Shown here piece by piece: positions 13,036 to 63,033 of a stretch of 64,000 nt of DNA. Source of the DNA: Candidatus Omnitrophota bacterium (GTDB lineage Bacteria; Omnitrophota; Omnitrophia; Omnitrophales; Aquincolibacteriaceae); the NCBI GenBank assembly GCA_903884815.1, contig CAISGE010000070.1, positions 22,080 to 86,079 of the forward strand, given 5' to 3'. Under the pieces are notes generated by a model. The model made no database searches, was not told the origin of the DNA, and saw only the letters and a program-made list of their open reading frames with translations. Numbering within the stretch: position 1 is the first letter of the stretch; every line of letters starts with the position of its first letter. The position numbers were made by a program, and so were the translations under genes.

Positions 13036-14040
13036 TCAGCGTACGGACCGGTTTATTTCATCCGCCATAGAATCAAGAGACAGCACGCAGGCGATCGCGC
13101 CTTGATCCACCGCCACTTTATTCATCCCGTAGATCGCGGAGGTCTTCTCATCCTGCGCGATCGTGTGGCCCCCCGCCGCTCGAATAGCTGCAATCCCCTC
13201 CACACCGTCCCGTCCCATACCGGTCATGATCACACCCACCGCCCTGTCCTTATAAATCTCTGCCGCTGAGAGCATCATCACGTCGATCGAGGGAACATGA
13301 AGCATTTTCCGGGACCCATCTTCCTTAAGAACGATCTTCTCTTCCTCATTGACGGTCATATGAACCCCATCCGGCGCAAAATAAACGGTTCCGCTTTTAA
13401 GTGGATCGCCCGCTTTAGCTACCCGGAGACTGAGCGCCGAGGTTAAACTCAACCACTCCACAAGCCCTTGAATGAACCCTGTGGAAATATGCTGGACAAT
13501 AAGAACGCATGCCGGAAGATCGGCGGGCAGTTTTGCGAGAAGGGCTTGCAGCGCCTGAGGCCCCCCTGTTGATACACCCAGGGCCACCACCCGCGTGGCA
13601 GCTTCTCTGTTCGTGACAAGCCTCTTCACTACCGGGCGGATATGCATCCTCCGGAGAGCTTTCACCCGGGAAGCGATCTTCACCTTCAACAGTACTTCCC
13701 CCTTGATCTCATCGAGGTCCCCGGTACTTGCCACAAAATCCATGGCTCCAAAGCTAAGCGCCTTGACGATGATCGGAACTTCCCGGCTGCTGACGATCAC
13801 GATCGGAGTCGGGCACTCTTCCATGATCAGCTCCGTCGCTTCCAATCCTCCCATCACCGGCATGGTTATATCCATGGTGACCACGTCCGGCCTCAAGGCT
13901 AACGTCTTTTCATAGCCTTCTTTCCCGTTGCGGGCCTCGCCAATCACTTCGATCTCAGGGTCCGCACTCAAAATGGTATTCAGCGCCTGGCGCACCAGCG
14001 TCGAATCATCAACAATCAAAACACGGATATTTTTCGGCAT
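13036..14040 (-). CDS. cheB: Chemotaxis response regulator protein-glutamate methylesterase CheB
   Basis: REC domain ([14 protein letters not shown]...[11 protein letters not shown]) plus the CheB methylesterase catalytic domain ([31 protein letters not shown]). Start set at MPKNIRV with RBS AAGGGAA. Confidence 0.9.
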
Positions 14041-14101
14041 AATTCCCTTTATGTTGAAATTCAAAACGCATGCATTGAACTTTTATCTCTAACGCTGCGT
14101 T

Positions 14102-16255: not shown

Positions 16256-16288
16256 CCGTAGGCCCCAAGATCAAAGCTTAGCTTAATT

Positions 16289-17806: not shown

Positions 17807-17827
17807 TTTGTTCCCGGATCTTTTCAG

Positions 17828-19369: not shown

Positions 19370-19392
19370 GATGTCTCTCCTTGTTGTCCGGA

Positions 19393-19911
19393 TTAGGCTT
19401 TTCTTAAATTCCGCATTTCTTCACATTGCAGGACCTTTTCGAGGTCCAGATAGATCAAAATATCGTTGCCATGCGCCACTTGTCCTTTGGTGAAACCGGC
19501 AAGTTTTCCATGAAGGGTCGCGAGCGGTGCCTGGACCTCAGCTTCGTCGATCTCGAGGGTGTCTTGCACACGATCCACCCGGAGGCCAACCGCCTCGCCG
19601 CTCAGATCGGTCACTATGACACGGACTTCGTGGGACTTTCCCACAGGCTCCAGTCCGAAAAAATAATGCAGGTCGAGAATGCTGATGATCTCACCCCGGA
19701 GATTCGCGACGCCGATCACAAAAGAGGGGACATTCGGAACTCGGGTCGTCTCCGGCATTTTCATGACTTCCTTGGCCTGGCGGACATCGATGCAGTAATT
19801 CTCTTTACCGAGTGAAAAGACCAGCACCCGGTGAAACTTCTTATGGGTTACGTCCTCGTAAAGTGCATCCTCTTCGGGATCAATATAAATCTTGTCCTGA
19901 TCCCCGGTCAT
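19393..19911 (-). CDS. cheW: Chemotaxis coupling protein CheW
   Basis: CheW-like domain (FSLGKENYCIDVRQAKEVMKMPETTRVPNVPSFVIGVANLRGEIISILDL). Start trimmed to MTGDQDK (19911), overlapping the upstream cheW stop by 4 nt. Confidence 0.85.
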   Translation of the reverse strand: MTGDQDKIYIDPEEDALYEDVTHKKFHRVLVFSLGKENYCIDVRQAKEVMKMPETTRVPNVPSFVIGVANLRGEIISILDLHYFFGLEPVGKSHEVRVIVTDLSGEAVGLRVDRVQDTLEIDEAEVQAPLATLHGKLAGFTKGQVAHGNDILIYLDLEKVLQCEEMRNLRKA

Positions 19912-20375
19912 GGAGTGTCCTTTTTCTTGATCTCCACACGCTCGTGAACTTTTTGAAGCCCCTCGGACTCCTCGCCGCGCAAAAAGCCGGTGAGATCCAC
20001 CAGAAGCACGAGCTTTCCCTGCCACTTCGTCATCCCCATAAGATAGGCCGCGCTCTGGAGCAAGTCATCAGGTTTCGTGATGTCCTCTGGTTTGACCGTC
20101 ACCACGTCCCTCACCTGATCGACCAGGATGCCGGTCCAATGGTTCTGTATCGTGGTGACCACGATACGGTTCGAGGGAACTTCCTGGGATTTCATGCCAA
20201 GCTTTTTGCGGAGATTGATGAGGGGAATCACGCGGCCGCGAAGGCTGATCACGCCTTCGACAAAAGAGGCGGCCTCGGGCACAGGCGTCACTTTTCGTTT
20301 GCGGATGACTTCGCGGACCTGGGTAATATCCGCCCCGTAATCTTTTTCGCCGACCGAAAAAACGAGGATCTTCAT
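19908..20375 (-). CDS. cheW: Chemotaxis coupling protein CheW (second copy)
   Basis: MKILVFSVGEKDYGADITQVREVI...VISLRGRVIPLINL is a CheW domain. Confidence 0.85.
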   Translation of the reverse strand: MKILVFSVGEKDYGADITQVREVIRKRKVTPVPEAASFVEGVISLRGRVIPLINLRKKLGMKSQEVPSNRIVVTTIQNHWTGILVDQVRDVVTVKPEDITKPDDLLQSAAYLMGMTKWQGKLVLLVDLTGFLRGEESEGLQKVHERVEIKKKDTP

Positions 20376-21895
20376 CAGGACTCCAATTTCAAACGTTCCA
20401 GATTATCGCAGCAAACACTTTTTAGGGTGGCCAGGTTGAACCCGCTGCTTTGCAGGATCATCTGGCTTCTCGGACCGGGCGTTCCTTTGGCAAGCGCCGC
20501 CAGCGTGTTCCGGTACTCCCGGATAGCATCTCCCGTCCGTCCCTCGGTACGTAAGACCTGCGCCATATAAAAGCGGGCCATGACAAAATCCTTGTCGATA
20601 TAAAGCGCCCGGTTCAGATGCTCCTTGGACTCGGCGATCTTCCCCTCTTCAAGGTCCATGCAACCGAGAAGGTAATACGCCGGAGCAAAGAGCGAATCAA
20701 TCGCAAGGGCCTTCCTTAAACGGGCCTTCGCCTCTTCGTGGCGGTTCCGATTGGCACAAATATCCGCCGCCAGGTAGTGTATATCGGCCATCCGGGCCCC
20801 TTCTACAGAGACTTTTTCGATCAGGGCCAACGCCTTGCCATATTCCTTCAGATAGATGAAACGGAGGATCTGCTGACGCACCGACTCGAAATCTTCGGGC
20901 TTCAGCTCCACAGGGTCCTGCTGCTCAATGATAGACGTAAGAGCCGGAAGGGGTATCTCCTCTACGTATTCCTCGATCTCAGGCTCCGATTCCTTCGCCG
21001 TCCAGGACGGAAGGGACTTAGCTTCATCGGACTTACCGACGACTTTGCGGTAATAGATGCCGTCCTGCCAGCTGGCCATACGGAATTTATCTGTCAGGTA
21101 CTGCAGGCTCTCGGAATATCCGAGGAAAAGGTAGCCGGGATCGGTCATGGCCGCGGCGAAATCCTCCATAATCCTGATGGTCGTCTTTGTTTCAAAATAG
21201 ATCGTCACGTTGCGACAGAAGACGATATCTAAACAGGGAGGGTAAGGGTCCCCGACGAGATTCAGAAAACCAAAACGCACCATCCTCTTGATCTCTTCCG
21301 AGATCTTCCATTCTCCACTCTGTTTGGAACCGGCCACCTTTGTAAAATATTTACTGCGATACGGTTCTTCGACGAGGCGCATGGAGTTCTCGTTATAGAT
21401 GCCGCGTTTGGCCTTTTCCATGGCCTCGGAAGAAGCGTCCGTGGCAAGGATCTCAATATCCCAGTCCTCCGGATGAGGAATCGTTTTCATCAAGACCATC
21501 GCGATCGTGTAAGGTTCTTCCCCGGTAGAGCATCCCGCGCTCCAGATCCTGAGAAGCGGTTTTTTTCCATCCCGGCGTTCGAAAGTCTCGCCCATTTTCC
21601 GTTCGATCAGTTCCGGAAGCACTTTATCTTTGAGCGCCAGGAACTGCGGCTCATTACGGAAAAAATAGGTGTGATTGATGGTGAGAAGATTCAGGAGTTC
21701 GCGGAATTCACTTTCTTTCTCTTCGGAGGTCGTCAGATAAAGATAATAGGAGTGAACGGAATCAAAGCCCCGGGACATCATTCTCTGGCTCACTCCGGTC
21801 TCGAGATTGCGCAGGTCATGGTCCCGGAAGTAAAGACCGCAACGGTCGGCAATATGCGTCTTGATCTGATTGCGGAGGTCTTCCGGAAAGTTCAT
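20375..21895 (-). CDS. cheR: Chemotaxis protein methyltransferase CheR with C-terminal TPR repeats
   Basis: CheR N-terminal and SAM-binding domains (HTYFFRNEPQF...RIWSAGCSTGEEPYTIAMVL), followed by three or four TPR-like repeats (YLAADICANRNRHEEAKARLRKALAID...AYYLLGCMDLEEGK). Start set at MNFPEDLRNQ (21895), which avoids overlap with the upstream small gene. Confidence 0.85.
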   Translation of the reverse strand: MNFPEDLRNQIKTHIADRCGLYFRDHDLRNLETGVSQRMMSRGFDSVHSYYLYLTTSEEKESEFRELLNLLTINHTYFFRNEPQFLALKDKVLPELIERKMGETFERRDGKKPLLRIWSAGCSTGEEPYTIAMVLMKTIPHPEDWDIEILATDASSEAMEKAKRGIYNENSMRLVEEPYRSKYFTKVAGSKQSGEWKISEEIKRMVRFGFLNLVGDPYPPCLDIVFCRNVTIYFETKTTIRIMEDFAAAMTDPGYLFLGYSESLQYLTDKFRMASWQDGIYYRKVVGKSDEAKSLPSWTAKESEPEIEEYVEEIPLPALTSIIEQQDPVELKPEDFESVRQQILRFIYLKEYGKALALIEKVSVEGARMADIHYLAADICANRNRHEEAKARLRKALAIDSLFAPAYYLLGCMDLEEGKIAESKEHLNRALYIDKDFVMARFYMAQVLRTEGRTGDAIREYRNTLAALAKGTPGPRSQMILQSSGFNLATLKSVCCDNLERLKLES

Positions 21896-21927
21896 TCGGG
21901 GATGCGTTCTGTCTTGGTCATGAAAAT

Positions 21928-22257
21928 TCACTGCTTGGGGGCGTTGAAGGACTTGTTGAAATCTTGCAATTGTTGTTGAAACTGCTTCTGGATCTGCCGC
22001 GTCTTTTCCTGGAGCTGCCTGGCGAGCACATCCCATTGCTGCTGCAACGTCCTCAAAGTATCCTGGACTTCCGTTTCCACTTTCTTGGAGGTTTCGGTCA
22101 CCTTCATAGCTCCGGTCGAAAGGCTTTCGTCGGCCGTCCCCTTCAACTCCCGGGCGGCCTCACCCGCCTGAGAGCCCAGAGAACTCTGGTCATCGGCATA
22201 GAGTCCTCCTCCCAGGATTCCCATCGCAAGCATCAAGAGTGCCAGCATCCGCTTCAT
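21928..22257 (-). CDS. Small secreted coiled-coil protein (signal peptide plus Gln-rich helix), hypothetical. It is the first gene of the che operon
   Basis: MKRMLALLMLAMGILGGGLYA signal peptide followed by QQQWDVLARQLQEKTRQIQKQFQQQLQ. Its stop is 30 nt from the cheR start on the same strand. Confidence 0.5.
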   Translation of the reverse strand: MKRMLALLMLAMGILGGGLYADDQSSLGSQAGEAARELKGTADESLSTGAMKVTETSKKVETEVQDTLRTLQQQWDVLARQLQEKTRQIQKQFQQQLQDFNKSFNAPKQ

Positions 22258-37887: not shown

Positions 37888-39369
37888 TCAGGAAAGAGAA
37901 TCGATCTGTTTCTCGAGGGCCAACAGGGTTTCTTCAAGATATTTCGAACGGGCCTGAGCCTTCGCGAGCATTTCTTTTCCCCGTTTCAACTCTTCTTCGA
38001 GGCGAACCTTTTCATCAAAGCTGCTCCGAAGCTGAGCCGCTTCGTTCTCGAGCTCCACGCATCGTTTCCGAAGCTCCTCCAATTGCGAGACTGTCTGGTT
38101 CGCGCTTTCTTCAAGCTCCTTGATCCTCGCCTCAGCGAGGGCTGCCGCTTCGCTCATTTTGGCGACTTTCTGAGAAAAAAGTTCCTTTTCTTGCTCCAAC
38201 GCAGCGATGCGCTCGGCGCGATCTCTGATTTCCATCCCGAGATGCTGATTCTCCCCTTCAAGAACGAGGATCTGATCCCTCAAGGCCACGACCGGCGCGA
38301 CAGCCTCTTTCAGATGGGACTGAAGTCCCGCAATTTCGGCATCCTTCCCGGTAAGCGCTGCGGCAATAGTTTGTTTTTCATTTTCCGACCGCTCTTTTTC
38401 CGACCGCGCCATTTCAAATCGTCCGTTCGCTTCTTGAAGACTTGCTTCCAGGGCGAGGCTTTGAGCCTTCACCGACTCAACGGATGCGAGCGCCTCTTGC
38501 AACCGGGACTGAAGTCCCGCAATTTCGGCATCTCTCCCAGCTAGTTCCTCAGCAAAGTTTTTTCTTTCGAGATCCCAACGCTCTTTCTCATTTTCAGACC
38601 GTTGCTCTTCTCTCGCGGCCAGACCGCGGAGTCGCTCCTGCTCGAGGAAATCAGCTTCTCTCTCGGAGCGGGCCTTCTCCAACCGCGCAATCTCGTTTTG
38701 ATATTCCGCGCATTTTTGCTCGAGGGCCGACACCTGGGCGCGCGGCGCCTCGATCAAGATCTCGAGACCGCCTATTTTTCGCGCAAGACGCGCTTCCTCT
38801 TCGTGAGCATGCTTGAGTTCTTCGGCAAGGCGATGGTTCTCGGCCTCGAGGGATTTCCTTTTGCCTTCCTCGTCGGCCTGAGCTTGTCTTCTTTTTTCCT
38901 CCGCGTCCGCGAACCGCTTGGCGTAAGCAAATTCTTTTTCGGAAAATTCCGCGTGGGCCTTTTTCTCAGCGGCAAGCTCCGCCTCGAGCCCCTGGCACTT
39001 CTTTTCCAATTCCTCGTACGGACTTACGATTTTCGAATGCCCGGAACGCTCCTGGGGTAAATCCGGGGGCAATTCGGGCGGAGCTTGATCCTCCGGAAGG
39101 AATGGCTCGGGGAGGCCCGAGGCTTGCACGCTCGGAGCAGACGGTGCCTCATGAGGAATGGCAGGGTGCTGCACACCCTCTTTTTTCTCCAAAAGATCGA
39201 TGAGATTCATCAGTTCCATCAGATCCACGGAGACGGGAACATCCCCCGATCCTTTTTTGGAAGGATCGGCTTGTTTGGAATAATGATCAAGAAGGGCGTC
39301 CGCCATCGGCTTCGAAATGCGTCCGTTTTGAACCCATTCACGGATCTGGTCGTCGTAGGAGGCGGTCAT
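37888..39369 (-). CDS. Coiled-coil protein with internal tandem repeats, hypothetical
   Basis: Heptad-rich sequence of about 490 aa. It contains repeated LAGRDAEIAGLQSRLQEA / LTGKDAEIAGLQSHLKEA units that are also repeated at the DNA level. The N-terminus is unique. No enzymatic motif. Confidence 0.6.
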   Translation of the reverse strand: MTASYDDQIREWVQNGRISKPMADALLDHYSKQADPSKKGSGDVPVSVDLMELMNLIDLLEKKEGVQHPAIPHEAPSAPSVQASGLPEPFLPEDQAPPELPPDLPQERSGHSKIVSPYEELEKKCQGLEAELAAEKKAHAEFSEKEFAYAKRFADAEEKRRQAQADEEGKRKSLEAENHRLAEELKHAHEEEARLARKIGGLEILIEAPRAQVSALEQKCAEYQNEIARLEKARSEREADFLEQERLRGLAAREEQRSENEKERWDLERKNFAEELAGRDAEIAGLQSRLQEALASVESVKAQSLALEASLQEANGRFEMARSEKERSENEKQTIAAALTGKDAEIAGLQSHLKEAVAPVVALRDQILVLEGENQHLGMEIRDRAERIAALEQEKELFSQKVAKMSEAAALAEARIKELEESANQTVSQLEELRKRCVELENEAAQLRSSFDEKVRLEEELKRGKEMLAKAQARSKYLEETLLALEKQIDSLS

Positions 39370-50145: not shown

Positions 50146-51834
50146 TCAAGTCGTGGGCACAGCTTTGCCATATTTTTTCACTTTTACTACGGCGCAGATA
50201 GGAACCCCATCCACCGTGACCGTGTGCACCGTCCCAGGCGGCGGCCACCGCCCCTGACGAAAATCTTCGGGAGAAAGATATCTCGAAAGTTTGATCACAT
50301 AATCTGCGTCGTCCTTGGAATGACTCAGAACATACCTTCCGGCGAGCCCGCGCAATAGATAATAGGCCACTTGGGGGGGTTCTCCGTCCGAGGCAATACG
50401 GACCGGTCCGGTCCCTCCTTGTTTCTGACAATCGCTTGCCAGCCACTGCGCCGCTTGCTTCAAACCATTCCCCCAATAATCAGTCTCATAGCGCCCATAA
50501 GCACCCCGTATCCCGCCCACCCAAGGATTAAAATAAACGTATTCATTCGGATGATTCCTCACCATCCACCCCACCGGCTCCACCGCGAACACCATAAGCA
50601 GCAACCCTCCGAGGATCTTCTCCCGCCGGGTCTTGAACCACGCGAAAAGCTCCTGCCATCCCAGCACCGACAGGATCACAAGCGTCGGGTAAATAAAAAG
50701 AAAATGACGCCAGCTATCATAAAGGATCGATCTCCGGAGCATCGCGTAAATAACCGGGAGGACCGTCACCATAAGGATCAGCAGCAAATAACGGCCCGGG
50801 ATCTTTTTCAAAACAGAACCGAAACGGATCGCCGACAGCACTAATCCCGCCTGTACGAACAAAGGAATGGTGATCAGCATCCAAACGGGGATATAAAACC
50901 AGGGAGCTGCGTTCAGCCAGACTGTCTGACCGTTGAAGAGCATGGATCCCTGGACGGCGGCCCGGAAGTAAGAAAGTTCCTCAAGCCCCTTCAACGGGTG
51001 GTGTATCGGATCGATCAATCCGTAAGGCCAAAAGATAAATCCCAGAAAATAACCGGCTCCAAGGACCCACAGGACTTTCAGAAAGGTATTCCGCGGCACA
51101 CGGAATTCCTTCTGCCTCAGGACACCTAGAAGCCACGATACAAAGAGAAAGAAAAACAAGAAGCAGAAGAGAATGAATGCCGCGCTAGCCCGGATATTGA
51201 CCGCTATCGCGATCCCGAGGGCAAGCACGGAAGCGGCTGCGAAGGAGGGTCGGGGCCAAGCTTTTAAAAAGCGTGTCATGCCGTAGATAGAAAAAATATA
51301 CGCGGCGGCAAACGGTATGTCCTTGGGATTATTCATCGAGTGCCCTAGGAAACAAGGCGTGACGATCAGGAACAAAAAGGTCAGAGATGCCGCCCGCCAT
51401 CCGGCCAGTTCCTTGGCCAGAAGTCCCGCGAATAGCATGGCAGACCACCCAAAGCAAGCGTTAAGAAAATGCCGGGATTCATAATAATATGGCAGGTAGA
51501 GCTCGAACGGAGGGTTGGAGAAGATCATTTGGGAAAGGTTATGATGCCAGAGGCCGTAGAGAAGATTCGCCATGGCATCGAAAAGAGCCCCATAGAGATA
51601 TTGGACGCCGAAGAAAACAAAACACTCTTTCGCCGCCCCTCCCGTGGCAAGAAAGCGAAGCACAAGCCTCCCGTAGTGGTCGCTGATCCAGTCATCCCAG
51701 GTGATTCCGAAATCCCGCGAGATGAAAAGCATGAATATAAGCGCCACTCCGGCAAGCGCCCAAAAAAGAGCCTTAGAGAAAGACTCTTGGGAAAGTCCTG
51801 GGGATATATTCGTTCTTTCGATTTGTGCCAGCAT
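50146..51834 (-). CDS. GT-C fold membrane glycosyltransferase (PMT/ArnT-like, GT39/GT83 type)
   Basis: An N-terminal TM bundle with an acidic first periplasmic loop (RDFGITWDDWISDHYG), at least 11 TM, and a C-terminal soluble domain of about 150 aa, the PMT/ArnT-like topology. Confidence 0.7.
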   Translation of the reverse strand: MLAQIERTNISPGLSQESFSKALFWALAGVALIFMLFISRDFGITWDDWISDHYGRLVLRFLATGGAAKECFVFFGVQYLYGALFDAMANLLYGLWHHNLSQMIFSNPPFELYLPYYYESRHFLNACFGWSAMLFAGLLAKELAGWRAASLTFLFLIVTPCFLGHSMNNPKDIPFAAAYIFSIYGMTRFLKAWPRPSFAAASVLALGIAIAVNIRASAAFILFCFLFFFLFVSWLLGVLRQKEFRVPRNTFLKVLWVLGAGYFLGFIFWPYGLIDPIHHPLKGLEELSYFRAAVQGSMLFNGQTVWLNAAPWFYIPVWMLITIPLFVQAGLVLSAIRFGSVLKKIPGRYLLLILMVTVLPVIYAMLRRSILYDSWRHFLFIYPTLVILSVLGWQELFAWFKTRREKILGGLLLMVFAVEPVGWMVRNHPNEYVYFNPWVGGIRGAYGRYETDYWGNGLKQAAQWLASDCQKQGGTGPVRIASDGEPPQVAYYLLRGLAGRYVLSHSKDDADYVIKLSRYLSPEDFRQGRWPPPGTVHTVTVDGVPICAVVKVKKYGKAVPTT

Positions 51835-51867: not shown

Positions 51868-51947
51868 TCTCGGACACACGATCACGCCCTAGTTATCGGC
51901 TGCCTCAGAACATGAGATTAGGCACATTCTAAGCAAAAGATCCCGGA
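51868..51947. repeat. About 75-bp intergenic repeat element, copy A (upstream of the GT-C gene)
   Basis: cacgccctagttatcggctgcctcagaacatgagattaggcacattctaagcaaaagatcccgg matches 59596-59678 at about 90% identity. It contains an imperfect palindrome ctcagaacatg...cacattctaag. Confidence 0.6.
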
Positions 51948-52068
51948 AAAGCATCAAAGTTGGCCGTAGCCTGGCCAAGAACAATTGGAAGAGGTTTTCA
52001 ATTAATGGGAAGGTCAGCATATTGAGCTGATATTCGTAAATTTCTACACATCCGAACGATGTTCTTTT

Positions 52069-55000
52069 TTAATTCCCTTTGATCTTCCGACTGGCTTCCC
52101 CGGCCGCGGCATCAACCTGCATGATGAATTCATCTTCGCTCAGGCCACCCAATATCTGCTTCACTTGTTGAGGATTCGCACGAATAAGTCTGGCCTTCTC
52201 CAAAAGTGCGGGGTCGATCCTGGCGATCTTGTCGAGATCCGCTACCTTGCCACCTTTCTTTAGGATCTCCAGATTTTTAGCGGCCTCTTGAAGAGCAAGC
52301 GCTTTATCGGCCCTCTCAAGAGCCTTGGACGCTTTTTCAGCCGTAAGTTCATCCGTTTTGGAAAGGGCCTCTTTTTGCTTTTTCATGATACTTTCTGCTT
52401 CTCCAGGCTTAACCTTGGGAGAATCTTCTCCGGCAAGCTCAGTCAGCTCTTTCTCAAGACTTTGTTTCTTCGCCGCTACGGAGTGGGCCTCACGGGGGCT
52501 TGCGCCCGGCATCGATTCGTCAAGCCTCTTGATCTCCTTTTCAAGAAGATCTTTCCGGATAAGAAGGTCCTGGTCCGTCATCGCCTGCCCGGAGGTCTTG
52601 TAAGATTTAATCTCACCTTCCTCCACTTTGAAAAACTTTGTCTTCCCCTGAACAGCCTGCCGTGTCTCTACGAATCCCCTTGCATAAGCATCGCCTGGGC
52701 CAGCCGACAGCCCAGAGCCGTTATAAATCTGGGATCGCACATCGTGAGCACTCAGACCCCTGGCCCTCAGGCTCGTATCCATAAAAGATTCTTGAGCCTC
52801 TGCGAGTTTTTTACAGAGCTCCCTGTCGGCCTTCATGAGATCCCCGCCATGATATTTGTCGGCGTAAACCTTTAAGGTCGATTCTTCGAAATTCGGACGC
52901 ACTGTAAAATCCGCGTCCGTATTGATCGAGGCGACCCTGCCGGTAGCGCTTGAACCGCTGTCTCCCGCCATCACTTCTTTGATCTGCACGCCTTCTTTTC
53001 CCTGGAACTCCTTTATCGTTTTCTTCATGCCCTCATCAAAGGCCTCGTTGACTTCTTTGTTGATCACGCTATTTATCTTTTTCACTTCATTTTTTCCAAG
53101 CTGGCCCAGACCCTCGAGTTGTATCATTTCGCCCCTTCCCGCGCCCGGGAAAAGCTCTTTGATCGCCTTGGCTTGCGTCGCTTCGTCTTTAATGCCCAAG
53201 GCTTTTTGAATTGCCATCTTTTTTCTAACAAGTTCTTTACTCAAGCCTTCTGTCCCAACCTCAGGGGCCATGCCGAGCGCCTTCCGAACCCCTCGGGATG
53301 CCGCGCCGCCCGCCCACGTGAAAAGACCCGAGGCCATCTGTCCGCCGGCCTCCTGTCCGATCATCGTAAGAGCCGTAATAGCAGCAGAGTCCATGATCGA
53401 CCGACCCTTTCGGAGATTATCGACCATGGTATAACCGGCGCCTGCTCCGGTATACGCGACTTCCGACCATCCCAGCGTTGCACCCCCAATAAGCATCCGC
53501 GCGGCCATCGATTTGATCGACATCCCTCCTTCGGCATCTTCACCCGTCACGATCTCACGGGCGGTCATCTGGGCCGTAGCCGTCATGGTCGACCGGGAAT
53601 ACCAGCGCGAATCGCGCGCGGCCTGGTCCATATCCTTTTCAAGCCCGTTCAGCTTGTCACGGAGCTCATCCTCTTTTTTGCGAAGGGCCGCAGTCTGCGC
53701 ACGCCTTGTCTCCGCTTCCCTTATCTCCTGTTTTGTCTTTCGGATATCTTCGGACATTTGTTTGAGTTCAGCCTGGCGTTTCTGGTCCGAGGCCTGATTG
53801 GCGGCCTGGAACTTCTGGTAGTTCGCATCCCTTTCTTTGGCTTCGCTTTCGCTGACCCATCCCCATTGATCCGTATACACTTTCCCTTCCTGGATCATTG
53901 CAAAGTCGGTCTCATAAATCTCGGGCTTCACCCATCCTCCGCCGGCCACGGGCGACCAGACAAGCCCCTGCTCATTCCTGTCTCCGGATTGCGGACCGGT
54001 TGGGACTGGTGCAGCGGCCTGAGGCTGCGAAGGACCGCCTTGTAACGTAATCGGCGGTAATTTTTCGCTATTGTCAGGTTCCGGATTCCAAAAATCTTCC
54101 GCCAAAGTCAGCGGCGGCGGCACATCAGCCTCGGGCTCAGACATTTCATCGGCTAATGTTTTTTGCGCTTCCGAAGAAGCAGCTGATTTAAAAAATACGG
54201 AAGTGTCCATATTTTTCAATTCGTTGAACACCGCCATAATTTGTTCTTCTGCTCCTGGGGTCATCTCAAGGACACTTACCCTATCAACGACATCGGGATT
54301 ATATTCACACCGAAAATAAACATTCTTGAAGCGAATGGCCCACCTCACACCCGATAACTGCCTATGCGGCCAAGTACCGCGGGTCCCAGGGTCAACAAAC
54401 GTGGCAATGGCACCACTGTCCCCGAGTCCGGGATTGTTATTGATGTTGGTTTCAAAATACGTGTCCGTTTTGCGCCAATCATCAATCTGCCAGCCGATCT
54501 CTTTTTCGATTCTTTCTTCGCTTTCTTTTCCTGGGGCTCGAAAAGAAATATCGAAATGGAGCACATAACTATCCTTTTTCCAGCCGGACGCCGCATTAAA
54601 AAGCGGCAAACTGCGGGCCGAATAGCGAAGCTCCATTTCCGGGGAGGCGCCGTCAAAGCCTCTCACTTGAAGGTTGATGTCATCCGCCCTGATGTATCCG
54701 ATATTTTTAACGAGCGGCTTAAGAGAATTTGGTAACCGGTCATAATGGGGGTTATCCGATCGAAAGATCTTTTTCCAATCCTCGGTCTGCATGGCCTTCT
54801 GAAGAGGCTCGTACACTGTTTTATTAGGGTCGAAAGACTGCCCATTGTGAGCTTCTTGGTATAGTTTAGGACTCTCATCGATCCTGATCCGGGCCACGAT
54901 CCCATTATTCCGGATATAACAAAAATGTTCTTTCCCATTGTAATTGGTAGCCGTCCACTGAAACACCTGACTTTCTTCAGCGGGAAGCGGCGCAGACCCT

Positions 55001-57408
55001 ATAAAAACAGGCTTTTTCCAATCGTTCGCTAAATGATGCCCTCCCGTCGCTTCGTCGTAATCGTGTTTATCCATGTGGCCCCATAGGGCTCTCGGACTGT
55101 AAAAATGGACTAATACGCTCGCGTTCCATGTGGTCACTGCAATTGTTTTGGGAGCTATTTCTTGTACGGTATAGTCGATGTCCGCCACTCCATCATAAGT
55201 GTCTTCCGCACCAGTCGACTGGATTTTGGACTTGCCAGGTATAACGAAATTTTTCAGCACATTAGGGACGCGATAACCTTCAAATAAATTTGCATCAACA
55301 ACCGGGTCACGGTTCTCCCATGTTTTTCCGGACATATCAAAAGTGAAATCTTCGACGACTTCTTGCCCGGGCTTTCCGGTAGTTTTTCCGACTTTGAGTG
55401 ACACCGGAAACGACTGAGCCGCATTCCCTGTTTGAATGTCGATCACTTGCAATGCAGCCTGGTAATCGCCGAGCTCCAGCATCGCAAGATCACAGGAAAC
55501 CGTTGCTTTCAATTTTTGGCCCGGGGCAATGGATCCCTTTTCGGAATTAACGGTCACCCATTTTTCGGAAGCCTTCCATTGATATTCCAGGTTCTTGCTT
55601 CCTTGATACAGCATTTCAAATGTTTGGGGTTGGACTACGCGGCCGCGTGTTCCAGCAAACGCCAGCTGTGCCGGCACAAAAATTATTTTTTTTTCTTCCT
55701 TAAGAACTAAAACAGCTTCAACCGTCAGCGTTTGCTTTTCACCGTATTCAATTACAATACGCCCGGGCTGCGGTCCGGCCGGAAGGTCCCCGGGCTTGAA
55801 CGCGACTTCGATCGTCTGCTGCTGTCCGGCATTGACCTGGCCCACGGCAGGAACTTCCATCCATGGAACATCCGAGCTGATCTTGTACGAAACGGTTTCA
55901 TTGCCGGAATTTCTCAGCACAAGAATTTTCGTCGGGACCGTTTCTCCCTTTTTAGCTTCGACTTGAAACTTGGCCATATCCAAAGACAAGGCTCCTCCTG
56001 CAACAATGATCAATTTCACTGGAAGTTTCTGCGGGCTGTTCTCGGCGTTGGGATCCGTGACCTGGATCGTGGCCAGATGTTCGCCAACCGGGAGGCCGGA
56101 AGTATGGACCTTTATATCGATCTGCGCCGAATCACCTTTTTCGAGCTTTCCGGAAACAGTGCCGAGCTCCAGCCACGGAGCGTCTTTGACGCATTGGAAA
56201 TTCAATGTTCCGTCACCGTCGTTTTTGATGACAAAATTGCCGCTTCCTTCGAGAGCTTTTCCGGCTTTGGCCTTGAAATCCAGTTTTTCCGCATCGATCG
56301 CTATCACCGGCGGCACGGTAAGCTTGAACTTGACTGGGATCTTCTTCAAAGTTTTCGCGGCTTCGTCCGTGATCACGATTTCACTGGTCTGCTCGCCGGG
56401 TTGAAGCTGTTTTGTTTCATAGTTGATCGTGAGAACGACCTCCTCTCCCCCCTGCAGCGTCTTCGAGGCGGGCATCACAGAAAACCAGGGATCTTTTGCT
56501 GTAGCTTTAATCGTAACAACGGAAGAACTTGTGTTTACAACGCGGAGGATCTGAGGATTGACCGGTTTTCCCTTTACTCCCTCAGCGGACAATTCCTGGG
56601 CGCTTAGCGAAAGAACATCGTTCGTCATCACAAAAGCCGTTACCTGGATATTTTGCGGACTGTTCTCTGCGCCCGGAGCAGTTACCGTGATCGTAGCAAC
56701 GTGAGCTCCGGCGGACATCGCGGAAGTTTTCATCTTGATTGTTGCGGAAGCGGACTGATTGCCGGAGATCTGCCCATTCGCAGGTTCCGCTGCCATCCAC
56801 GCACTCCCATCGTCCGCCGAGAAAGCCAAGCGAAGCGAATAATTCAACATCCCGGCTCCCAGGTTCTGGATCATGAACGTCTGATCGCTCGCGTTTTCTC
56901 CTTGACGGAATTTTGCACTCAACTGTTTTTGATCCAGCGCGAGCACGGCTCCGGGAAGCATCTCCAGCCGCACAAGCACGGTACGGGGACTGTTCTGGGC
57001 GTTCGCATCTTCGATCACGACCGGCGCCACATAATTCCCCTCTTTAAGATCCGCGGTCTTGAAGCGAAGGTTGATCTTCTGCTCCGATCCGGCCGAGGAA
57101 GTTCCCTGTTCCGGGATCACTTCGAGCCAGGACATCGTTGACTTGACCGTAAAATTGAGCGTGCCCGCTCCGGTATTTCTAACGCTGAAGCTCGCGTCCT
57201 GGGTATTCTCTCCGATAACCCCCCGCACTTTGACTTCTGGAACGCTCGTTTCAATAAAAGACTTGGAAGCGTCTGGAGGCGTACCCGAGGTGGCAGTTTT
57301 CAGCACCTGTACCGCTTTATCCAAAAAACTAGAAAAACCCGGCGGCAGGATCATAAAAAAACATACTATTGCGGCGAAAAAAAACGGGATCGTTTTGGGA
57401 ACTTTCAT
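52069..57408 (-). CDS. Giant secreted protein (1779 aa): signal peptide, at least 5 tandem Ig-like (BACON/ASH-type beta-sandwich) repeats, then a C-terminal region of about 1000 aa of unknown function with coiled-coil and Gly-zipper segments
   Basis: MKVPKTIPFFFAAIVCFFMILPPG signal. Repeated units of about 100 aa share ...NxGAGxLNF..K....WLE.....G.L..G....I.......G.Y.A.V.I...NA.NSP... motifs. The C-terminal part has a charged coiled coil (QKRQAELKQMSEDIRKTKQEIREAETRR) and GxxxG-rich segments. Confidence 0.8.
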   Translation of the reverse strand: MKVPKTIPFFFAAIVCFFMILPPGFSSFLDKAVQVLKTATSGTPPDASKSFIETSVPEVKVRGVIGENTQDASFSVRNTGAGTLNFTVKSTMSWLEVIPEQGTSSAGSEQKINLRFKTADLKEGNYVAPVVIEDANAQNSPRTVLVRLEMLPGAVLALDQKQLSAKFRQGENASDQTFMIQNLGAGMLNYSLRLAFSADDGSAWMAAEPANGQISGNQSASATIKMKTSAMSAGAHVATITVTAPGAENSPQNIQVTAFVMTNDVLSLSAQELSAEGVKGKPVNPQILRVVNTSSSVVTIKATAKDPWFSVMPASKTLQGGEEVVLTINYETKQLQPGEQTSEIVITDEAAKTLKKIPVKFKLTVPPVIAIDAEKLDFKAKAGKALEGSGNFVIKNDGDGTLNFQCVKDAPWLELGTVSGKLEKGDSAQIDIKVHTSGLPVGEHLATIQVTDPNAENSPQKLPVKLIIVAGGALSLDMAKFQVEAKKGETVPTKILVLRNSGNETVSYKISSDVPWMEVPAVGQVNAGQQQTIEVAFKPGDLPAGPQPGRIVIEYGEKQTLTVEAVLVLKEEKKIIFVPAQLAFAGTRGRVVQPQTFEMLYQGSKNLEYQWKASEKWVTVNSEKGSIAPGQKLKATVSCDLAMLELGDYQAALQVIDIQTGNAAQSFPVSLKVGKTTGKPGQEVVEDFTFDMSGKTWENRDPVVDANLFEGYRVPNVLKNFVIPGKSKIQSTGAEDTYDGVADIDYTVQEIAPKTIAVTTWNASVLVHFYSPRALWGHMDKHDYDEATGGHHLANDWKKPVFIGSAPLPAEESQVFQWTATNYNGKEHFCYIRNNGIVARIRIDESPKLYQEAHNGQSFDPNKTVYEPLQKAMQTEDWKKIFRSDNPHYDRLPNSLKPLVKNIGYIRADDINLQVRGFDGASPEMELRYSARSLPLFNAASGWKKDSYVLHFDISFRAPGKESEERIEKEIGWQIDDWRKTDTYFETNINNNPGLGDSGAIATFVDPGTRGTWPHRQLSGVRWAIRFKNVYFRCEYNPDVVDRVSVLEMTPGAEEQIMAVFNELKNMDTSVFFKSAASSEAQKTLADEMSEPEADVPPPLTLAEDFWNPEPDNSEKLPPITLQGGPSQPQAAAPVPTGPQSGDRNEQGLVWSPVAGGGWVKPEIYETDFAMIQEGKVYTDQWGWVSESEAKERDANYQKFQAANQASDQKRQAELKQMSEDIRKTKQEIREAETRRAQTAALRKKEDELRDKLNGLEKDMDQAARDSRWYSRSTMTATAQMTAREIVTGEDAEGGMSIKSMAARMLIGGATLGWSEVAYTGAGAGYTMVDNLRKGRSIMDSAAITALTMIGQEAGGQMASGLFTWAGGAASRGVRKALGMAPEVGTEGLSKELVRKKMAIQKALGIKDEATQAKAIKELFPGAGRGEMIQLEGLGQLGKNEVKKINSVINKEVNEAFDEGMKKTIKEFQGKEGVQIKEVMAGDSGSSATGRVASINTDADFTVRPNFEESTLKVYADKYHGGDLMKADRELCKKLAEAQESFMDTSLRARGLSAHDVRSQIYNGSGLSAGPGDAYARGFVETRQAVQGKTKFFKVEEGEIKSYKTSGQAMTDQDLLIRKDLLEKEIKRLDESMPGASPREAHSVAAKKQSLEKELTELAGEDSPKVKPGEAESIMKKQKEALSKTDELTAEKASKALERADKALALQEAAKNLEILKKGGKVADLDKIARIDPALLEKARLIRANPQQVKQILGGLSEDEFIMQVDAAAGEASRKIKGN

Positions 57409-57411
57409 GAT

Positions 57412-57840
57412 TTAAACTCCGAGAAGTGAGTAATGAAAGGTGTAACCCATGGCAACCGCCAGGGCTTCGATCTTTTGTCGGATGCAAGCATAATCGAATT
57501 GGTAAGCGTAGTTTTTCCCGAAGAGCGCGGACTGCTCTTCGATCGTGCCTTCCCGGGGCTTCCCCCAACCGGTTTTATAGGTTTCCGTCTTAAATCCAAA
57601 ACCGGGCGTGTCGTCAACGTTTCCCATGGATAATCCGGATCCGCTCTCCTTGAGCATCTCCGTAAAGCGAAGTTCTTTTTTGGATTCATCGAAACGGAAC
57701 CGGGCAAGGTAGGTAATTTTCTTGCTGCTCAAAAACGCCTTCCGCTCGGCAAGAAGGCCGTCCAGAATAAAAATATTTTTTTCTTCTTTAAGGGTTAATG
57801 GCAGGTCCGCGATGGCCTTCCGGATCTCTTCTTTCAACAC
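57412..57840 (-). CDS. Small 142-aa protein co-transcribed upstream of the giant protein, hypothetical
   Basis: Its stop lies 4 nt before the start of the giant gene. It has no signal peptide and no recognised motif. Confidence 0.5.
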   Translation of the reverse strand: MLKEEIRKAIADLPLTLKEEKNIFILDGLLAERKAFLSSKKITYLARFRFDESKKELRFTEMLKESGSGLSMGNVDDTPGFGFKTETYKTGWGKPREGTIEEQSALFGKNYAYQFDYACIRQKIEALAVAMGYTFHYSLLGV

Positions 57841-58092
57841 ACCGCCTCCCTTTTCCCCGATAAAAAATCGGATGGAGCGACTATGCTATACCGTGCACCC
57901 ACAGCCATCTCATTGACACAGTGCTAGTTATCGACAACTCCAAATCTGATATTGATGAAATCCAAGAAAAAAAACCTCGCGAAAAAAGAAAGCGATAAAA
58001 ACGCTTACAACGGCTTCGCTGTAAGCCTTTTATCTGCAAAAAGAACAAAATCGGGGCAAAAGGATTGGGACCTTCGACCACGCGCACCCCTT

Positions 58093-58101
58093 CCCCCCCC
58101 C
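58093..58101. repeat. C9 homopolymer (G9 on the minus strand) in the intergenic region upstream of the giant-protein operon
   Basis: ccccttCCCCCCCCCtactc read directly from the sequence; it is about 250 nt upstream of the start of the small partner gene. Confidence 0.9.
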
Positions 58102-58118
58102 TACTCTCAACTGACTCG

Positions 58119-58532
58119 CTACCGCTGAGGAGGATGCAAGAACCGGAATTGCCCCCTGGCAGGCCCCGACGTTGCAATCGCGACCATTTCGCCCTTCTTA
58201 TTGAAACGCACCGTGACCTTACTCTTTTCCTCGCTTGTAGTGGAGGTTGCGGCGAATGTCCCGAACGCCCCCATTTGCCCCGTTGTCGTAGTATCGCCGC
58301 GATCCACTACATCATAAATCCATATTTCGCCGCCATCTTCGACCACTTCTTTGGCTGTCGGTTGCCCCACCTGCATGATCAGTTCGCTTTTTGTCATCCC
58401 CTGAGCAACGCATGCATTGAGATTGGTGTTGAGCGCCACTTGGGATTCTTTGTTCCATGTATCCATGTTGACACACCCAGCGCTAAAGAAAGGCAACATC
58501 AAACATGCCACAATAAAAGCCGATGTTCTCAC
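58119..58532 (-). CDS. BamE/SmpA-OmlA-like outer membrane lipoprotein
   Basis: Lipoprotein signal LMLPFFSAGC, then GMTKSELIMQVGQPTAKEV...GEIWIY resembling the BamE fold motif (G-x-TK-x-x-V-x-x-x-G-x-P). Similarity-based, moderate. Confidence 0.55.
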   Translation of the reverse strand: MRTSAFIVACLMLPFFSAGCVNMDTWNKESQVALNTNLNACVAQGMTKSELIMQVGQPTAKEVVEDGGEIWIYDVVDRGDTTTTGQMGAFGTFAATSTTSEEKSKVTVRFNKKGEMVAIATSGPARGQFRFLHPPQR

Positions 58533-58705
58533 ATGCGCCTCCCATTATTTATATTGGCAGCAATCTGGGGATAATCCATTTCCTCGTCGTTCCCCATTCC
58601 GATAAGTCTTTGCAAGGTTTTCTTTGTATCAATTTCCACCCTATTGCTCATACCTTTTATTGCCCTTAAACAGCCTCATCCCCAACCGCTCGAACCCCAA
58701 CTCTC

Positions 58706-59521
58706 TTAGATTCGCAATGTGATCCCGGCAGAAACTGAATTTTCATCAACAAATCGTCCTTCCACAGAAAGGCTCACGAATTTCCCGATCCCGATATCCA
58801 TGCCGACGAATGGCCCGAATTTATATTGGCTTTGATCTCTCGATTTACCATTGATTCCCGATCCCGATGCGGTAAAAGCAGCGCCTTTTGAAATGGCATC
58901 CATGTCTGAATACTTACCCCCGAAGTAGGGAGTCACTGTAAAATCCTTACTGAGTTTGAATTCCTGAGACACGCCCAGGGCAGTTTGCCATTCTAACCAT
59001 GTTGCATTTACGACTCCGTCTGTTATGTCCTGGCCTATAAACTTGTCCAGTTGAGTTCGTGTTCGACGGAACTTCGAATCAGAAAAAATCTGCAGGTCCT
59101 TAGCTTGACTCGAGAAAACCTTCTGTTTGAAAAGAATTACTTTCGCCCCGAGGCCCCAAGCAAAACTAGCCCCATATTCAAAAGAATCCCGGGTTGCTCC
59201 GACCGGTGCACGCGCTGCCATCTTCGCACTACCAAGTTCGATATAAGGCTCCACCCGATCCATGATGTCGCAGGAGATCTTTGCGAGGAACCAGTGCACA
59301 TGAGCTTTAGGATCACCTGTCTTGGGCCTCAAATCACGGTTCTCGTAATCGTAAACAAAACTTGCCTTCAAAGGGCTCTTCCCAATCTTCGGGATCTCCA
59401 AAAGGCCTCCCTCGGGTGTCGCCACATCGCTCGTGGGACCAACGGAAGCGGCTAGGGCTGACCCAATGGAACAGTGCGCAATGAGCAGCGACGCGCCTAC
59501 AAATACAATCAGTTTTTTCAT
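58706..59521 (-). CDS. Outer membrane beta-barrel protein (porin/OMP-like), hypothetical
   Basis: Start MKKLIVFVGASLLIAHCSIGSALA with RBS GGGAGG 4 nt upstream. It has alternating amphipathic beta-strand pattern throughout and an aromatic/hydrophobic C-terminus (ITLRI). Confidence 0.65.
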   Translation of the reverse strand: MKKLIVFVGASLLIAHCSIGSALAASVGPTSDVATPEGGLLEIPKIGKSPLKASFVYDYENRDLRPKTGDPKAHVHWFLAKISCDIMDRVEPYIELGSAKMAARAPVGATRDSFEYGASFAWGLGAKVILFKQKVFSSQAKDLQIFSDSKFRRTRTQLDKFIGQDITDGVVNATWLEWQTALGVSQEFKLSKDFTVTPYFGGKYSDMDAISKGAAFTASGSGINGKSRDQSQYKFGPFVGMDIGIGKFVSLSVEGRFVDENSVSAGITLRI

Positions 59522-59595
59522 TTTTCCTCCCAAAAGATTGGTCTAATTGGAATACGTTTGTATCATTTCAAAGTCGAATACCAACGTTAATGATT

Positions 59596-59678
59596 CCCGA
59601 TCCACACCACGCCTTAGTTATCGGCTGCCTCAGGACATGAGATTAGTCACATTCTAAGCAAAAGATCACGCGAAACCC
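59596..59678. repeat. About 75-bp intergenic repeat element, copy B (upstream of the OMP gene)
   Basis: cacgccttagttatcggctgcctcaggacatgagattagtcacattctaagcaaaagatcacgcg. See copy A. Confidence 0.6.
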
Positions 59679-59994
59679 AACGGGCAATAAAAAAGCTCAC
59701 AGCGGATAAGCTGTGAGCCTTTTAATTGCGATGGGAACCATCGGCCGCACGTACCCCACGTGAGACGCTCCCGCTTTCTGCAATTTCACAACACGCATGT
59801 CGACTCGACCAAGCCCTCGGCAGATCTGATTTTCGACTGCATCCTCAGAAGGACTGAGCAACGTTTGATGAACCAGAAAAGGTCTTGAGGTAATCAAACA
59901 AGATATCACTCCGGTGCGGCGCGCACATCTCAACCACGAATAGCCGCGCCGTGGAAATGCTTCAGGGAGGGGGCTGCGCCAGCAGACCGGCTGG

Positions 59995-60835: not shown

Positions 60836-62425
60836 CTAATTCGGCCGCATATCCAGAGATTTAACATGGTATTTAAAAATCCTCAGCCCGCTTAAAGTAG
60901 TTTTTGTTAAAAACTCAAAACGGGCATCACTATCCGCCGCTTTTTTGAGGGCATCAAAATTCATTTTCCAATAAACATCTTCGATTAAATAAAAAACCTT
61001 CGTCTTCTGTCTTCGGACAAGGGAGTAAAGACTTCCTTTGCGATATCTGAAAATACGCAAATCAGGAAATTTCTTTTTTGATTTTTTAAACTGTTCCTGA
61101 TGGTAACGAAGGCTGATAGCGGACGCGGTCGTGAGAACGACAACAGGATCCCCTTCCACGGACTGGTCTTTATCAAAATAGTCGACGGCTGAGCGCCAAT
61201 CTTCATTGGGTTTATACACCGACCAAATTTCCTTCGAACCACAACTCAAACTTCCATCCATCGCGGCCGCACCCAAAATCGCCAACAGGGTGTAAGCGGA
61301 AAAACGGAGCCACCGACGCTTAAAGTGAGTCGCTCCTTTGCCTACAGCGATATAAAAGAACGGCAAAAGAATCAAAGCATAACGTTCTATGTAAAGATGA
61401 GGCCATTGAAGCGATAAGAGGATCAGAGTCAGAGGCAGCGCAAAAAGGTAAAGGCACAAATCGATTCTCCTGGTCTCCCTGACTTGAGCAATAAGGCCCT
61501 TCGTGAAAAGATACGCGAAGAAAAACTGCGAAAAAAGCAAATAAGGCTGCCCCAGCAGACTCTTCAGTTGTTCGTGCGAATAAGGGTTGATCGGCCAAAT
61601 GGCGTTGCCCATTGAAAACCAGTTAAAAAAAAGCATCCATCCCTCAAAAGGTGTAAATGCTCTTAAAAAAAAGGCTCCCGACAAAATCGGGACAAGCGTA
61701 ATCTTCGATTTAACGATTAAAAAACAAAGCGGGAAAATAAAAATAGAAGAATTCAAACCCCAAACCAGGAATTTCACGCGCTTGTTCTTTTCGGACAACA
61801 CCAGGCATGAAAACACTACGACAAGAACAATAACGAACCAATGCGTAAAAACCGCGATGAGCAGAGAAAGAAAGTAAACCGCGCACCAACCCCCAATGCG
61901 ACCTTTTTCTTTGATTTTGTAAAATGAGTAAACACTCATCAAGGCGAGCAATAAAAGCATCGAGTAAGGCACGGCTTCACGAGAGTACCAAACATGAACA
62001 GGCGAGAGGGCTAACAAAAATGAAGCGATCATCGCGCTCAGTCGATCTGTCAATTTTAATGCGACAAGGTAAATCAACACGATCGATAAAATGCCGCAAA
62101 GAAAAGGAAGCATTCTCACGGAAAGTTCGGAGTCGCCAAACAGTCGGACCCAAAAAGACATCAGGAGTGGATAAAAAGGTGCCGCGGGGTCCTCCCAAAT
62201 CCGATTCCACATCCCCCCGAACAAGGTTCGAAACCCCACAAGCGTTGAATACCCCACTTCGTCATACCAAAAGCTTCGTGTTAACCCCTGCATCCGAAGA
62301 ACCACTCCGAGCAGAATAATTCCGACTAAAAGAAACTTTGAATGTTTACTCAAAATGGAGTTATCGTCTGTCATTGTTCCATTCCGCGATTGCACAAAGC
62401 CCCAACTTCTTTCTTGAAGATTCAT
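60836..62425 (-). CDS. GT-C fold membrane glycosyltransferase of the PMT/ArnT (GT39/GT83) family
   Basis: First periplasmic loop RSFWYDEVGYS carries a PMT/ArnT-like Asp-Glu (DE) motif. Multiple TM segments follow, then a C-terminal soluble domain. The real start may be the internal MTDDNS (62374). Confidence 0.75.
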   Translation of the reverse strand: MNLQERSWGFVQSRNGTMTDDNSILSKHSKFLLVGIILLGVVLRMQGLTRSFWYDEVGYSTLVGFRTLFGGMWNRIWEDPAAPFYPLLMSFWVRLFGDSELSVRMLPFLCGILSIVLIYLVALKLTDRLSAMIASFLLALSPVHVWYSREAVPYSMLLLLALMSVYSFYKIKEKGRIGGWCAVYFLSLLIAVFTHWFVIVLVVVFSCLVLSEKNKRVKFLVWGLNSSIFIFPLCFLIVKSKITLVPILSGAFFLRAFTPFEGWMLFFNWFSMGNAIWPINPYSHEQLKSLLGQPYLLFSQFFFAYLFTKGLIAQVRETRRIDLCLYLFALPLTLILLSLQWPHLYIERYALILLPFFYIAVGKGATHFKRRWLRFSAYTLLAILGAAAMDGSLSCGSKEIWSVYKPNEDWRSAVDYFDKDQSVEGDPVVVLTTASAISLRYHQEQFKKSKKKFPDLRIFRYRKGSLYSLVRRQKTKVFYLIEDVYWKMNFDALKKAADSDARFEFLTKTTLSGLRIFKYHVKSLDMRPN

Positions 62426-63033
62426 TCATCATTTCCAGGATTATTCTGAGACTACGCGGCTGAAAGTAGCTTTCATGATCAAATGAGTTTTTAAAAAGGA
62501 TCCACTCCACGGGAACTTCACGCCAAAATAGCCTGTTAGAATTGCCATCCTCAAATAAAACAGCGGATGGTTTTCACCCACCCGTTGCTTGGGCAATCTG
62601 AGACATAGGTTACACCATATGCTGGAAACATCGGTAGGACTTTTGGGGAATGCTGGCATAACGGAGTGGACCATGTCCTAAGAGAGAATGTTCTCGCGGC
62701 CACCCATGAAATCTGTCGGACGGGTATTGCTGATTGAAAAATCACTCCTCTTTGCAAGGAGTTTGGCATTCTGAGAAAGGAAGATTATAAGTTTTGGGGC
62801 CGTTATCACGAAGCGAACCTGCACTGTTCAATGGATCGGACGTTCTGATACGCCCATCGGCTGCCCATGCAGGTCAAGAAAGAAATTTTTCAAGTTAAGA
62901 GAGACAAACCTTCCCAGCGTACGCCAAAGACCCGGGAAATCCGCAAAAGAAAATATCCCGAGGTAAAGGCTCCGCAAGTAGACCGGCCGGGAATGAGATC
63001 TGGAGAAAATTTGAAAGGCTCGGCGTGTGTTTT

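Follow-up and report, generated by a model that had tools for sequence, protein, structure and literature searches.

A 64-kb stretch of an Omnitrophota genome (contig CAISGE010000070.1; this whole stretch is called the window below, and coordinates are window positions) carries nearly the same short intergenic block upstream of two unrelated envelope genes, which raises the question of what this element does. The genes encode a GT-C membrane glycosyltransferase and a protein distantly related to outer-membrane proteins (OMPs), and the original prediction had allowed for both shared regulatory architecture and a small mobile repeat. Judging from its sequence, we consider the element to be a promoter cassette of the sigma-28 class (FliA/SigD/WhiG) that has been duplicated and serves envelope genes, with a probability of about 0.7. 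Such a cassette is a signal of a known kind in a little-studied phylum and implies no new mechanism. Related metagenome loci carry L-numbers (L003, L037 etc.).

Results

The element is present in two clear copies:

51883..51950, minus strand: copy A, putative promoter cassette upstream of the GT-C-like (PMT_2) gene, 91% identity to copy B
59608..59675, minus strand: copy B, putative promoter cassette upstream of the OMP gene, found by repeat, consensus and hidden Markov model (HMM) searches

A repeat search of the window aligns the two copies at 91% identity over 68 nt. This agrees with the two intergenic copies of about 90% identity that had been predicted, but the shared block is shorter than the approximately 75 bp (in intervals of up to 83 nt) given for it. 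A 54-nt consensus matches the window only at 51889-51942 (no mismatches) and 59614-59667 (one mismatch), with no match in 100 shuffles, and an HMM built from the two copies recovers both with nhmmer at E ~1e-30 and finds nothing else significant in the window. On the minus strand, copy A reads GATCTTTTGCTTAGAATGTGCCTAATCTCATGTTCTGAGGCAGCCGATAACTAGGGCGTG. The core had also been placed at about 57924, and the 12-mer CTAGTTATCGRC is indeed found again in the window at 57924-57935 (copy C; three sites at one mismatch or fewer, 0.22 expected), but as a whole element copy C is not significant there (nhmmer E=3.5). Counted from the G of the box GCCGATAA (GTCGATAA in copy C), the start codon lies 66 nt downstream for copy A (GT-C gene), 104 nt for copy B (OMP ATG at 59521) and 95 nt for copy C (a 142-aa gene heading a giant-protein operon). 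The proposed placement of 55-105 nt upstream of minus-strand starts, in a single orientation, is thus confirmed.

Sigma-28 (FliA/SigD/WhiG) promoters have the consensus GCCGATAA at -10 and TAAA at -35 (PMC12784957, PMC8325347), and in the Pseudomonas aeruginosa fliC open complex TCTAAAG lies at -36..-30 and GCCGATAA at -15..-8 (PMC12784957). The corresponding candidate features of the element are as follows:

51893..51900, minus strand: copy A -10 box GCCGATAA, 8/8 consensus match
59618..59625, minus strand: copy B -10 box GCCGATAA, 8/8 consensus match
51917..51922, minus strand: copy A -35-like box CCTAAT, with the T of TAAT 20 nt upstream of the -10-box G
59642..59647, minus strand: copy B -35-like box ACTAAT, T-to-G distance 20 nt
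57928..57935, minus strand: weaker -10-like box GTCGATAA of copy C, followed by CTAG, with TCAA at the -35 position
51926..51940, minus strand: A/T-rich segment TTTTGCTTAGAAT upstream in copy A, kept in copies A and B and in both L023 copies (L023a, L023b)
51883..51887, minus strand: predicted copy A transcription start, around the G at 51885, by analogy with the -15..-8 numbering

The -10 box agrees with the consensus at all eight positions in copies A and B and at seven of eight in copy C, while the -35 feature, TAAT, keeps three of the four bases of TAAA in copies A and B and is absent from copy C. When both boxes are combined as TAA-N17-RYCGATAR, only copies A and B match in 64 kb (0.12 expected); a loose TAAA/GCCGATAA search with two mismatches allowed is unspecific in the window, at 23 matches versus 13.7 in shuffles. 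The T-to-G distance is 20 nt in both copies, compared with 19 nt in P. aeruginosa fliC. By analogy, transcription would start near 51885 and 59610, approximately 8 nt after the -10 box. The upstream segment TTTTGCTTAGAAT may be UP-element-like or a sigma-70 -10 look-alike (TAGAAT), and after the -10 box the copies continue with a tail of consensus CTARGGCGTG.

Read as a promoter, the minus strand would thus present an A/T-rich stretch (GATCTTTTGCTTAGAAT), a -35-like (C/A)CTAAT, a 16-nt spacer, the -10 box GCCGATAA and a tail that would supply the discriminator and the transcription start, and it would be read by a group-3 sigma factor such as FliA, SigD or WhiG. We infer the reading sigma factor, the start position and the roles of the A/T segment and the tail. 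A sigma-70 consensus scan did not flag the element. TAGAAT was rejected as the -10 box of the main promoter because it is replaced in an OMP orthologue of 86% identity, and sigma-32-like (CCCCATnT) and extracytoplasmic-function (ECF) type readings, judged by eye, were dropped, being without a matching -35 box.

The position of the copies among the transcription units also bears on their function. All genes of the region lie on the minus strand, and the relevant ones are:

59695..59718: intrinsic terminator (hairpin and T-run) roughly 20 nt ahead of copy B, belonging to the minus-strand gene before it
58706..59521, minus strand: OMP gene behind copy B, coding for an exported protein of 271 aa that is distantly related to Chlam_OMP (PF01308)
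58003..58026, minus strand: intrinsic terminator at the end of the OMP transcription unit, some 70 nt ahead of copy C
57412..57840, minus strand: 142-aa gene behind copy C
52069..57408, minus strand: giant BACON-domain protein of 1779 aa, second gene behind copy C
50146..51834, minus strand: gene behind copy A, a 562-aa GT-C/PMT_2-like membrane glycosyltransferase

In the direction of transcription, the order is a PMT_2 GT-C gene (60836-62425), a 236-aa gene, a terminator, copy B, the 271-aa OMP gene, a small gene, the terminator at 58003-58026, copy C, the 142-aa gene, the 1779-aa BACON protein, copy A and the 562-aa GT-C gene. Each of the three copies directly precedes a new transcription unit, and copies B and C each directly follow a terminator, so a promoter is needed at these two places. 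Copy B would start the OMP gene and the small gene, the weaker copy C the 142-aa gene and the BACON protein, and copy A the GT-C gene and those following it.

Orthologues of the OMP gene provide an evolutionary footprint. In an upstream alignment of copy B with L037, which holds the 86% orthologue, CCTAAT/ACTAAT and GCCGATAA are unchanged, whereas only about 5 of 16 spacer positions are kept and TAGAAT has become CAGCTT. The lineage-specific tail is missing from L040 (72% homologue), and in the most distant copies, L040 and L012, only TAAAG/TTTAGG and GCCGATAA are kept in otherwise unrelated surroundings. Conserved boxes around a free spacer are the pattern that a two-box promoter would be expected to leave. 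Copy A has no orthologous footprint, given that its GT-C homologues are at most 48% identical.

Two further observations concern this gene. The predicted OMP 5' untranslated region (UTR; window 59522-59610, L037:3580-3659) is approximately 88% identical between species whose OMPs are 86% identical, which suggests that the leader has a function, such as in mRNA stability or in the control of translation. In L037 (3330-3410; also L038 and L039) a tRNA gene and a terminator immediately precede the OMP orthologue, and in the window the preceding gene is the 236-aa gene; the promoter cassette has hence been kept even though the upstream neighbour differs between species.

Further copies were found in Omnitrophota metagenomes. 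A scan with AGCCGATARCTARGGCRTG returned 22 loci, 12 of which are clearly homologous beyond the pattern and represent 10 different copies (L015, L018, L020/L028, two in L023, L024, L025/L031, L027 and L030); the others look like chance. These ten copies were selected with a pattern that included the tail, so their tail conservation is by construction. The tail CTARGGCGTGG is also seen in unbiased close copies (TTAAGACGTGG, GTAAGGCGTGA, CTAATGCGTAA).

A second set of loci was fetched through OMP homologues without using the DNA motif. It contains copies at L037:3566 (before the 86% OMP orthologue), L037:1685, L041:2983 and L041:3678. At L040:739, before the 72% homologue, CATAAAG-N14-GCCGATAA forms a canonical sigma-28 promoter with 19 nt from T to G, and at L012:136 (= L013:627) TTTAGG...GCCGATAA stands 39 nt before the ATG of a 59% homologue. 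Within these motif-independent loci, six of eight GCCGATAA sites are sense-oriented and 20-120 nt ahead of a called start, a zone that makes up 5.3% of positions (binomial P = 5e-7). An all-copy HMM added two more copies, L030b and L027b.

Among the 20 tabulated copies, GCCGATAA is exact in 16 and has one mismatch in 3 more, and TA is found 18-20 nt upstream of the -10-box G in 17. All 20 are sense-oriented, 39-138 nt before a start codon, and the genes mostly encode exported or membrane proteins. With boxes conserved upstream of orthologues and copies placed before transcription units, the shared regulatory architecture proposed originally is broadly supported.

Searches elsewhere gave no additional copies. 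Two more distant Omnitrophota loci around prfC (43 kb) hold no true copy, one GTCGATAA lying inside a terminator loop, and the 5 kb beyond the window on either side contain neither a sigma factor nor further copies. A 19-mer scan of representative genomes, a set that does not include this species, gave two chance matches (Muribaculaceae and Dehalococcoidia). Viral contigs gave one chance match, in apparent coding sequence, and none for the -35/-10 composite.

Some copies have features of their own. At L003:1-2300 (also L020 and L028), one strain has about 2.3 kb of different sequence next to the 3'-end fragment of a tRNA (GGTTCAAATCC...); this sequence codes for an Inhibitor_I42 protein and a number of small exported proteins, and a diverged promoter copy precedes one small gene. 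An nhmmer match in this strain-variable island (L003:570-625) shows that the part conserved in the diverged copy is GAGCCGATAGCTAGGGCATGGTGG, and the copy has an extra 40 nt or so between the upstream TGCTAGAATGCTGCTAAT box and the CTTAAT/GCCGATAG boxes. At L027:1532-1600, L041:2940-2995 and L018:1020-1070, boxes resembling GCTAAT, GCTAAA and CCTAAT recur every 11-12 bp or so upstream of the -35 box and at it, most clearly in L027b and L041a, a periodicity that resembles response-regulator direct-repeat sites or stacked UP/-35 elements. Within the window, GGGCAGCCGATGGGCGTATCAG at 62850-62878 (minus strand), some 430 nt upstream of the PMT_2 gene at 60836-62425, resembles the core GGCAGCCGATAACTAGGGCGTGATCG minus AACTA and may be a decayed copy or chance.

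Alternative explanations

Several points weigh against a sigma-28-class promoter. The -35 box is TAAT or TAG and not TAAA, the spacing is mostly 1 nt longer than in fliC, and in close copies the conservation of the spacer motif CCCATCC and of the 10 nt that follow the -10 box (CTAGGGCGTG) exceeds what promoters normally show, which could reflect an extra function or just recent duplication. No gene for a sigma-28-family sigma factor or an anti-sigma factor was found in approximately 75 kb of genome (the window open reading frames (ORFs) scanned, L001 and L045), and no promoter of this kind precedes a chemotaxis-like operon in the window. In a survey paper on Omnitrophota, flagella are not mentioned and type IV pili are described as common; the regulon of any sigma-28-family factor is probably non-flagellar. 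A literature search on FliA or sigma factors in Omnitrophota returned nothing useful.

The original prediction had also pointed to a sigma-54-like GG-N10-GC spacing and to an imperfect palindrome. Copy A does contain AGGCAC-N5-AAGCA on the plus strand, and the GG-N10-GC spacing is also readable in L023 and L037. However, all downstream genes lie on the other strand from the match aGGcacattctaaGCa, which would therefore fire away from them and run into the upstream terminator. In copy B, which reads aGTcacattctaaGCa, GG is GT, so in the window the match is confined to copy A; it is also absent from more distant copies. The check for an enhancer-binding protein (EBP) and sigma-54 system that had been suggested found no Sigma54_activat domain in the window ORFs scanned with Pfam. 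The palindrome CTTAGAATGTG/CATGTTCTGAG is present in copy A (11 positions, 3 of them non-Watson-Crick on the plus strand), but copy B has one mismatch more, and across five close copies it is not conserved: 66% of cells pair, with no compensatory change, and shuffles do equally well. We thus give a sigma-54 promoter with a palindromic operator almost no credence. A mobile repeat without regulatory function, similar to a miniature inverted-repeat transposable element (MITE) or a repetitive extragenic palindromic (REP) sequence, would account for near-identical 68-nt copies before unrelated genes, both here and in the related L023 species. It is nevertheless very improbable, as there are no terminal inverted repeats and no target-site duplications, the 64 kb hold only two or three copies, each of them pointing at the start of a gene, interspecies conservation is box-like and viral contigs contain no true copy.

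A plain promoter leaves the spacer CCCATCC, the tail CTARGGCGTGG and the A-rich or GCTAAW-like boxes that precede the -35 box by about 11-12 nt unexplained, and for this reason two other explanations were retained. In one, transcription would start at TAGAAT and CUAAUC...GCCGAUAACUAGGGCGUGG would form a structured or protein-bound 5' leader controlling the stability or translation of envelope mRNAs. Many copies do have TAGAAT, TAAAAT or TAAATA-like boxes 5-12 nt upstream of CTAAT, a few of them preceded by TG at one or two bases, and conservation is unusually high in the tail CTAGGGCGTGG and in the spacer motif CCCATCC. A 3-bp spacer hairpin shows a few compensatory changes, and several copies allow long-range pairings to be drawn by hand, such as that of GUUACC with GGUAAC in L030. 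Yet the OMP orthologue retains CTAAT and GCCGATAA but not TAGAAT, and RNAalifold on 11 copies yields only two 3-bp hairpins (-5.8 kcal/mol), with the GCC/GGC hairpin invariant. Single-sequence folding of both copies on both strands gives z-scores of -0.08 and +0.25, and Rfam has no match in the window at the gathering threshold and none around copy A at E up to 10. The distant copies L040 and L012 keep only the boxes, a pattern that fits a promoter and not an RNA fold. We consider a leader RNA unlikely. In the other, GCTAAW-like direct repeats about 11-12 bp apart would bind a winged-helix response regulator or similar activator overlapping the -35 region, and this could hold with or without the sigma-28 box. 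Periodic boxes are seen in L027b (GCTAAT-N5-GCTAAA-N5-CCTAAT) and L041a (GCTAAT-N5-GCTAAA-N6-TCTAAT), with a third box that is less regular in L018; the corresponding pair in the window is GCTTAG-N6-CCTAAT, and many response regulators are encoded in the window and its neighbours. Against such an array, its upstream boxes vary and several copies lack them (L040, L012 and the OMP copy of L037 among others), the sole invariant block is the unrepeated GCCGATAA, and an A-rich box at the UP-element position (about -46 to -38) is a simpler explanation. We rate a transcription-factor array as improbable too, and no likelier than the leader RNA.

Genomic setting

The same locus with identical copies is present in many lake metagenomes, and the window has a G+C content of 52.8%. 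Its release factor 3 shares 84-85% identity with proteins named Candidatus Omnitrophota or Omnitrophica, and the nearest named homologues of the GT-C protein are likewise from Omnitrophota. The 1779-aa protein contains repeated BACON_2 and Ig-like (HYDIN/ASH/Cep192-type) domains and is a candidate surface adhesin; the 142-aa gene before it has no family match.

Elsewhere in the window, a chemotaxis-like cluster (13036-22036, minus strand) encodes CheB, a CheA-CheW-receiver hybrid, two methyl-accepting chemotaxis proteins (MCPs), CheW and a fusion of CheR with tetratricopeptide repeats (TPR). Its tandem paralogous MCP genes (16289-17806 and 17828-19369) share approximately 72% nucleotide identity over 300 nt. 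The cluster has no flagellar genes nearby and no sigma-28-like promoter upstream, and it may serve pili or another function. A Memo-AMMECR1 fusion adjoins a radical SAM gene at 6985-8598, with a B12-binding radical SAM gene upstream (3390-4886), and the pairing of Memo-AMMECR1 with radical SAM is also conserved in the related contig L045. Two 145-nt direct repeats of 70% identity, 189 nt apart, lie at 38256-38589 inside a 493-aa ORF without a Pfam match.

Discussion

The element shares with sigma-28 promoters, which have TAAA(G) and a spacer of about 15 nt, an identical -10 box, a TAA/TAG box at a T-to-G distance of 19-20 nt, a spacer that varies between orthologues and a position less than 150 nt before genes. 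It differs from them in a -35 box of (C)CTAAT/CTAG, often followed by CCCAT, in place of TAAAG, in the conservation among close relatives of the 10 nt after the -10 box (CTARGGCGTG), and in its non-flagellar genes (OMP, GT-C, giant BACON, small exported and PilZ-like proteins). FliA-type specificity at genes unrelated to flagella is also found with WhiG of Streptomyces and Rubrobacter and with sigma-28 of Chlamydia: in Rubrobacter, WhiG controls type IV pili and cyclic di-GMP enzymes (PMC8325347), and Chlamydia sigma-28 controls hctB and tsp. In those systems the sigma factor, anti-sigma factor and start sites have been established experimentally, whereas the present case is one of promoter-like sequence.

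Mobile promoters are homologous promoter sequences upstream of non-homologous genes. The window resembles this situation, with a 91%-identical 68-nt block before two unrelated genes 7.7 kb apart, as does the related species L023, with very similar blocks before two other genes. Unlike mobile promoters, the element shows no sign of a transposition mechanism, and local duplication or gene conversion may account for its copies. The high identity of copies A and B and of both L023 copies implies that whole promoter cassettes were duplicated before unrelated genes.

On the sigma-28-class reading, a FliA-family alternative sigma factor would co-regulate cell-envelope and surface genes. More tentatively, in a phylum that has not been described as flagellated, such a sigma factor might use a lineage-specific extended promoter (CTAATCCCAT at -35; GCCGATAA followed by CTAGGGCGTGG) to drive a surface and envelope regulon, perhaps linked to an attached or host-dependent lifestyle. 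This regulon may comprise the major OMP, GT-C glycosyltransferases, the giant BACON adhesin-like protein, small exported proteins and PilZ proteins, and the conserved tail and spacer could form a second layer of control, for example an operator or a 5' leader.

To our knowledge, Omnitrophota is a phylum without isolates. If the sigma-28-class assignment is true, the cassette would offer a first handle on gene regulation in this phylum, and a recognisable promoter would mark envelope and surface genes that are regulated together, among them those for the major OMP and the BACON protein, both candidates for cell-cell attachment. It would also join Chlamydia and the WhiG systems as an example of the 'flagellar' sigma clade in a non-flagellar role. 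The motif is directly usable for regulon prediction in Omnitrophota metagenome-assembled genomes.

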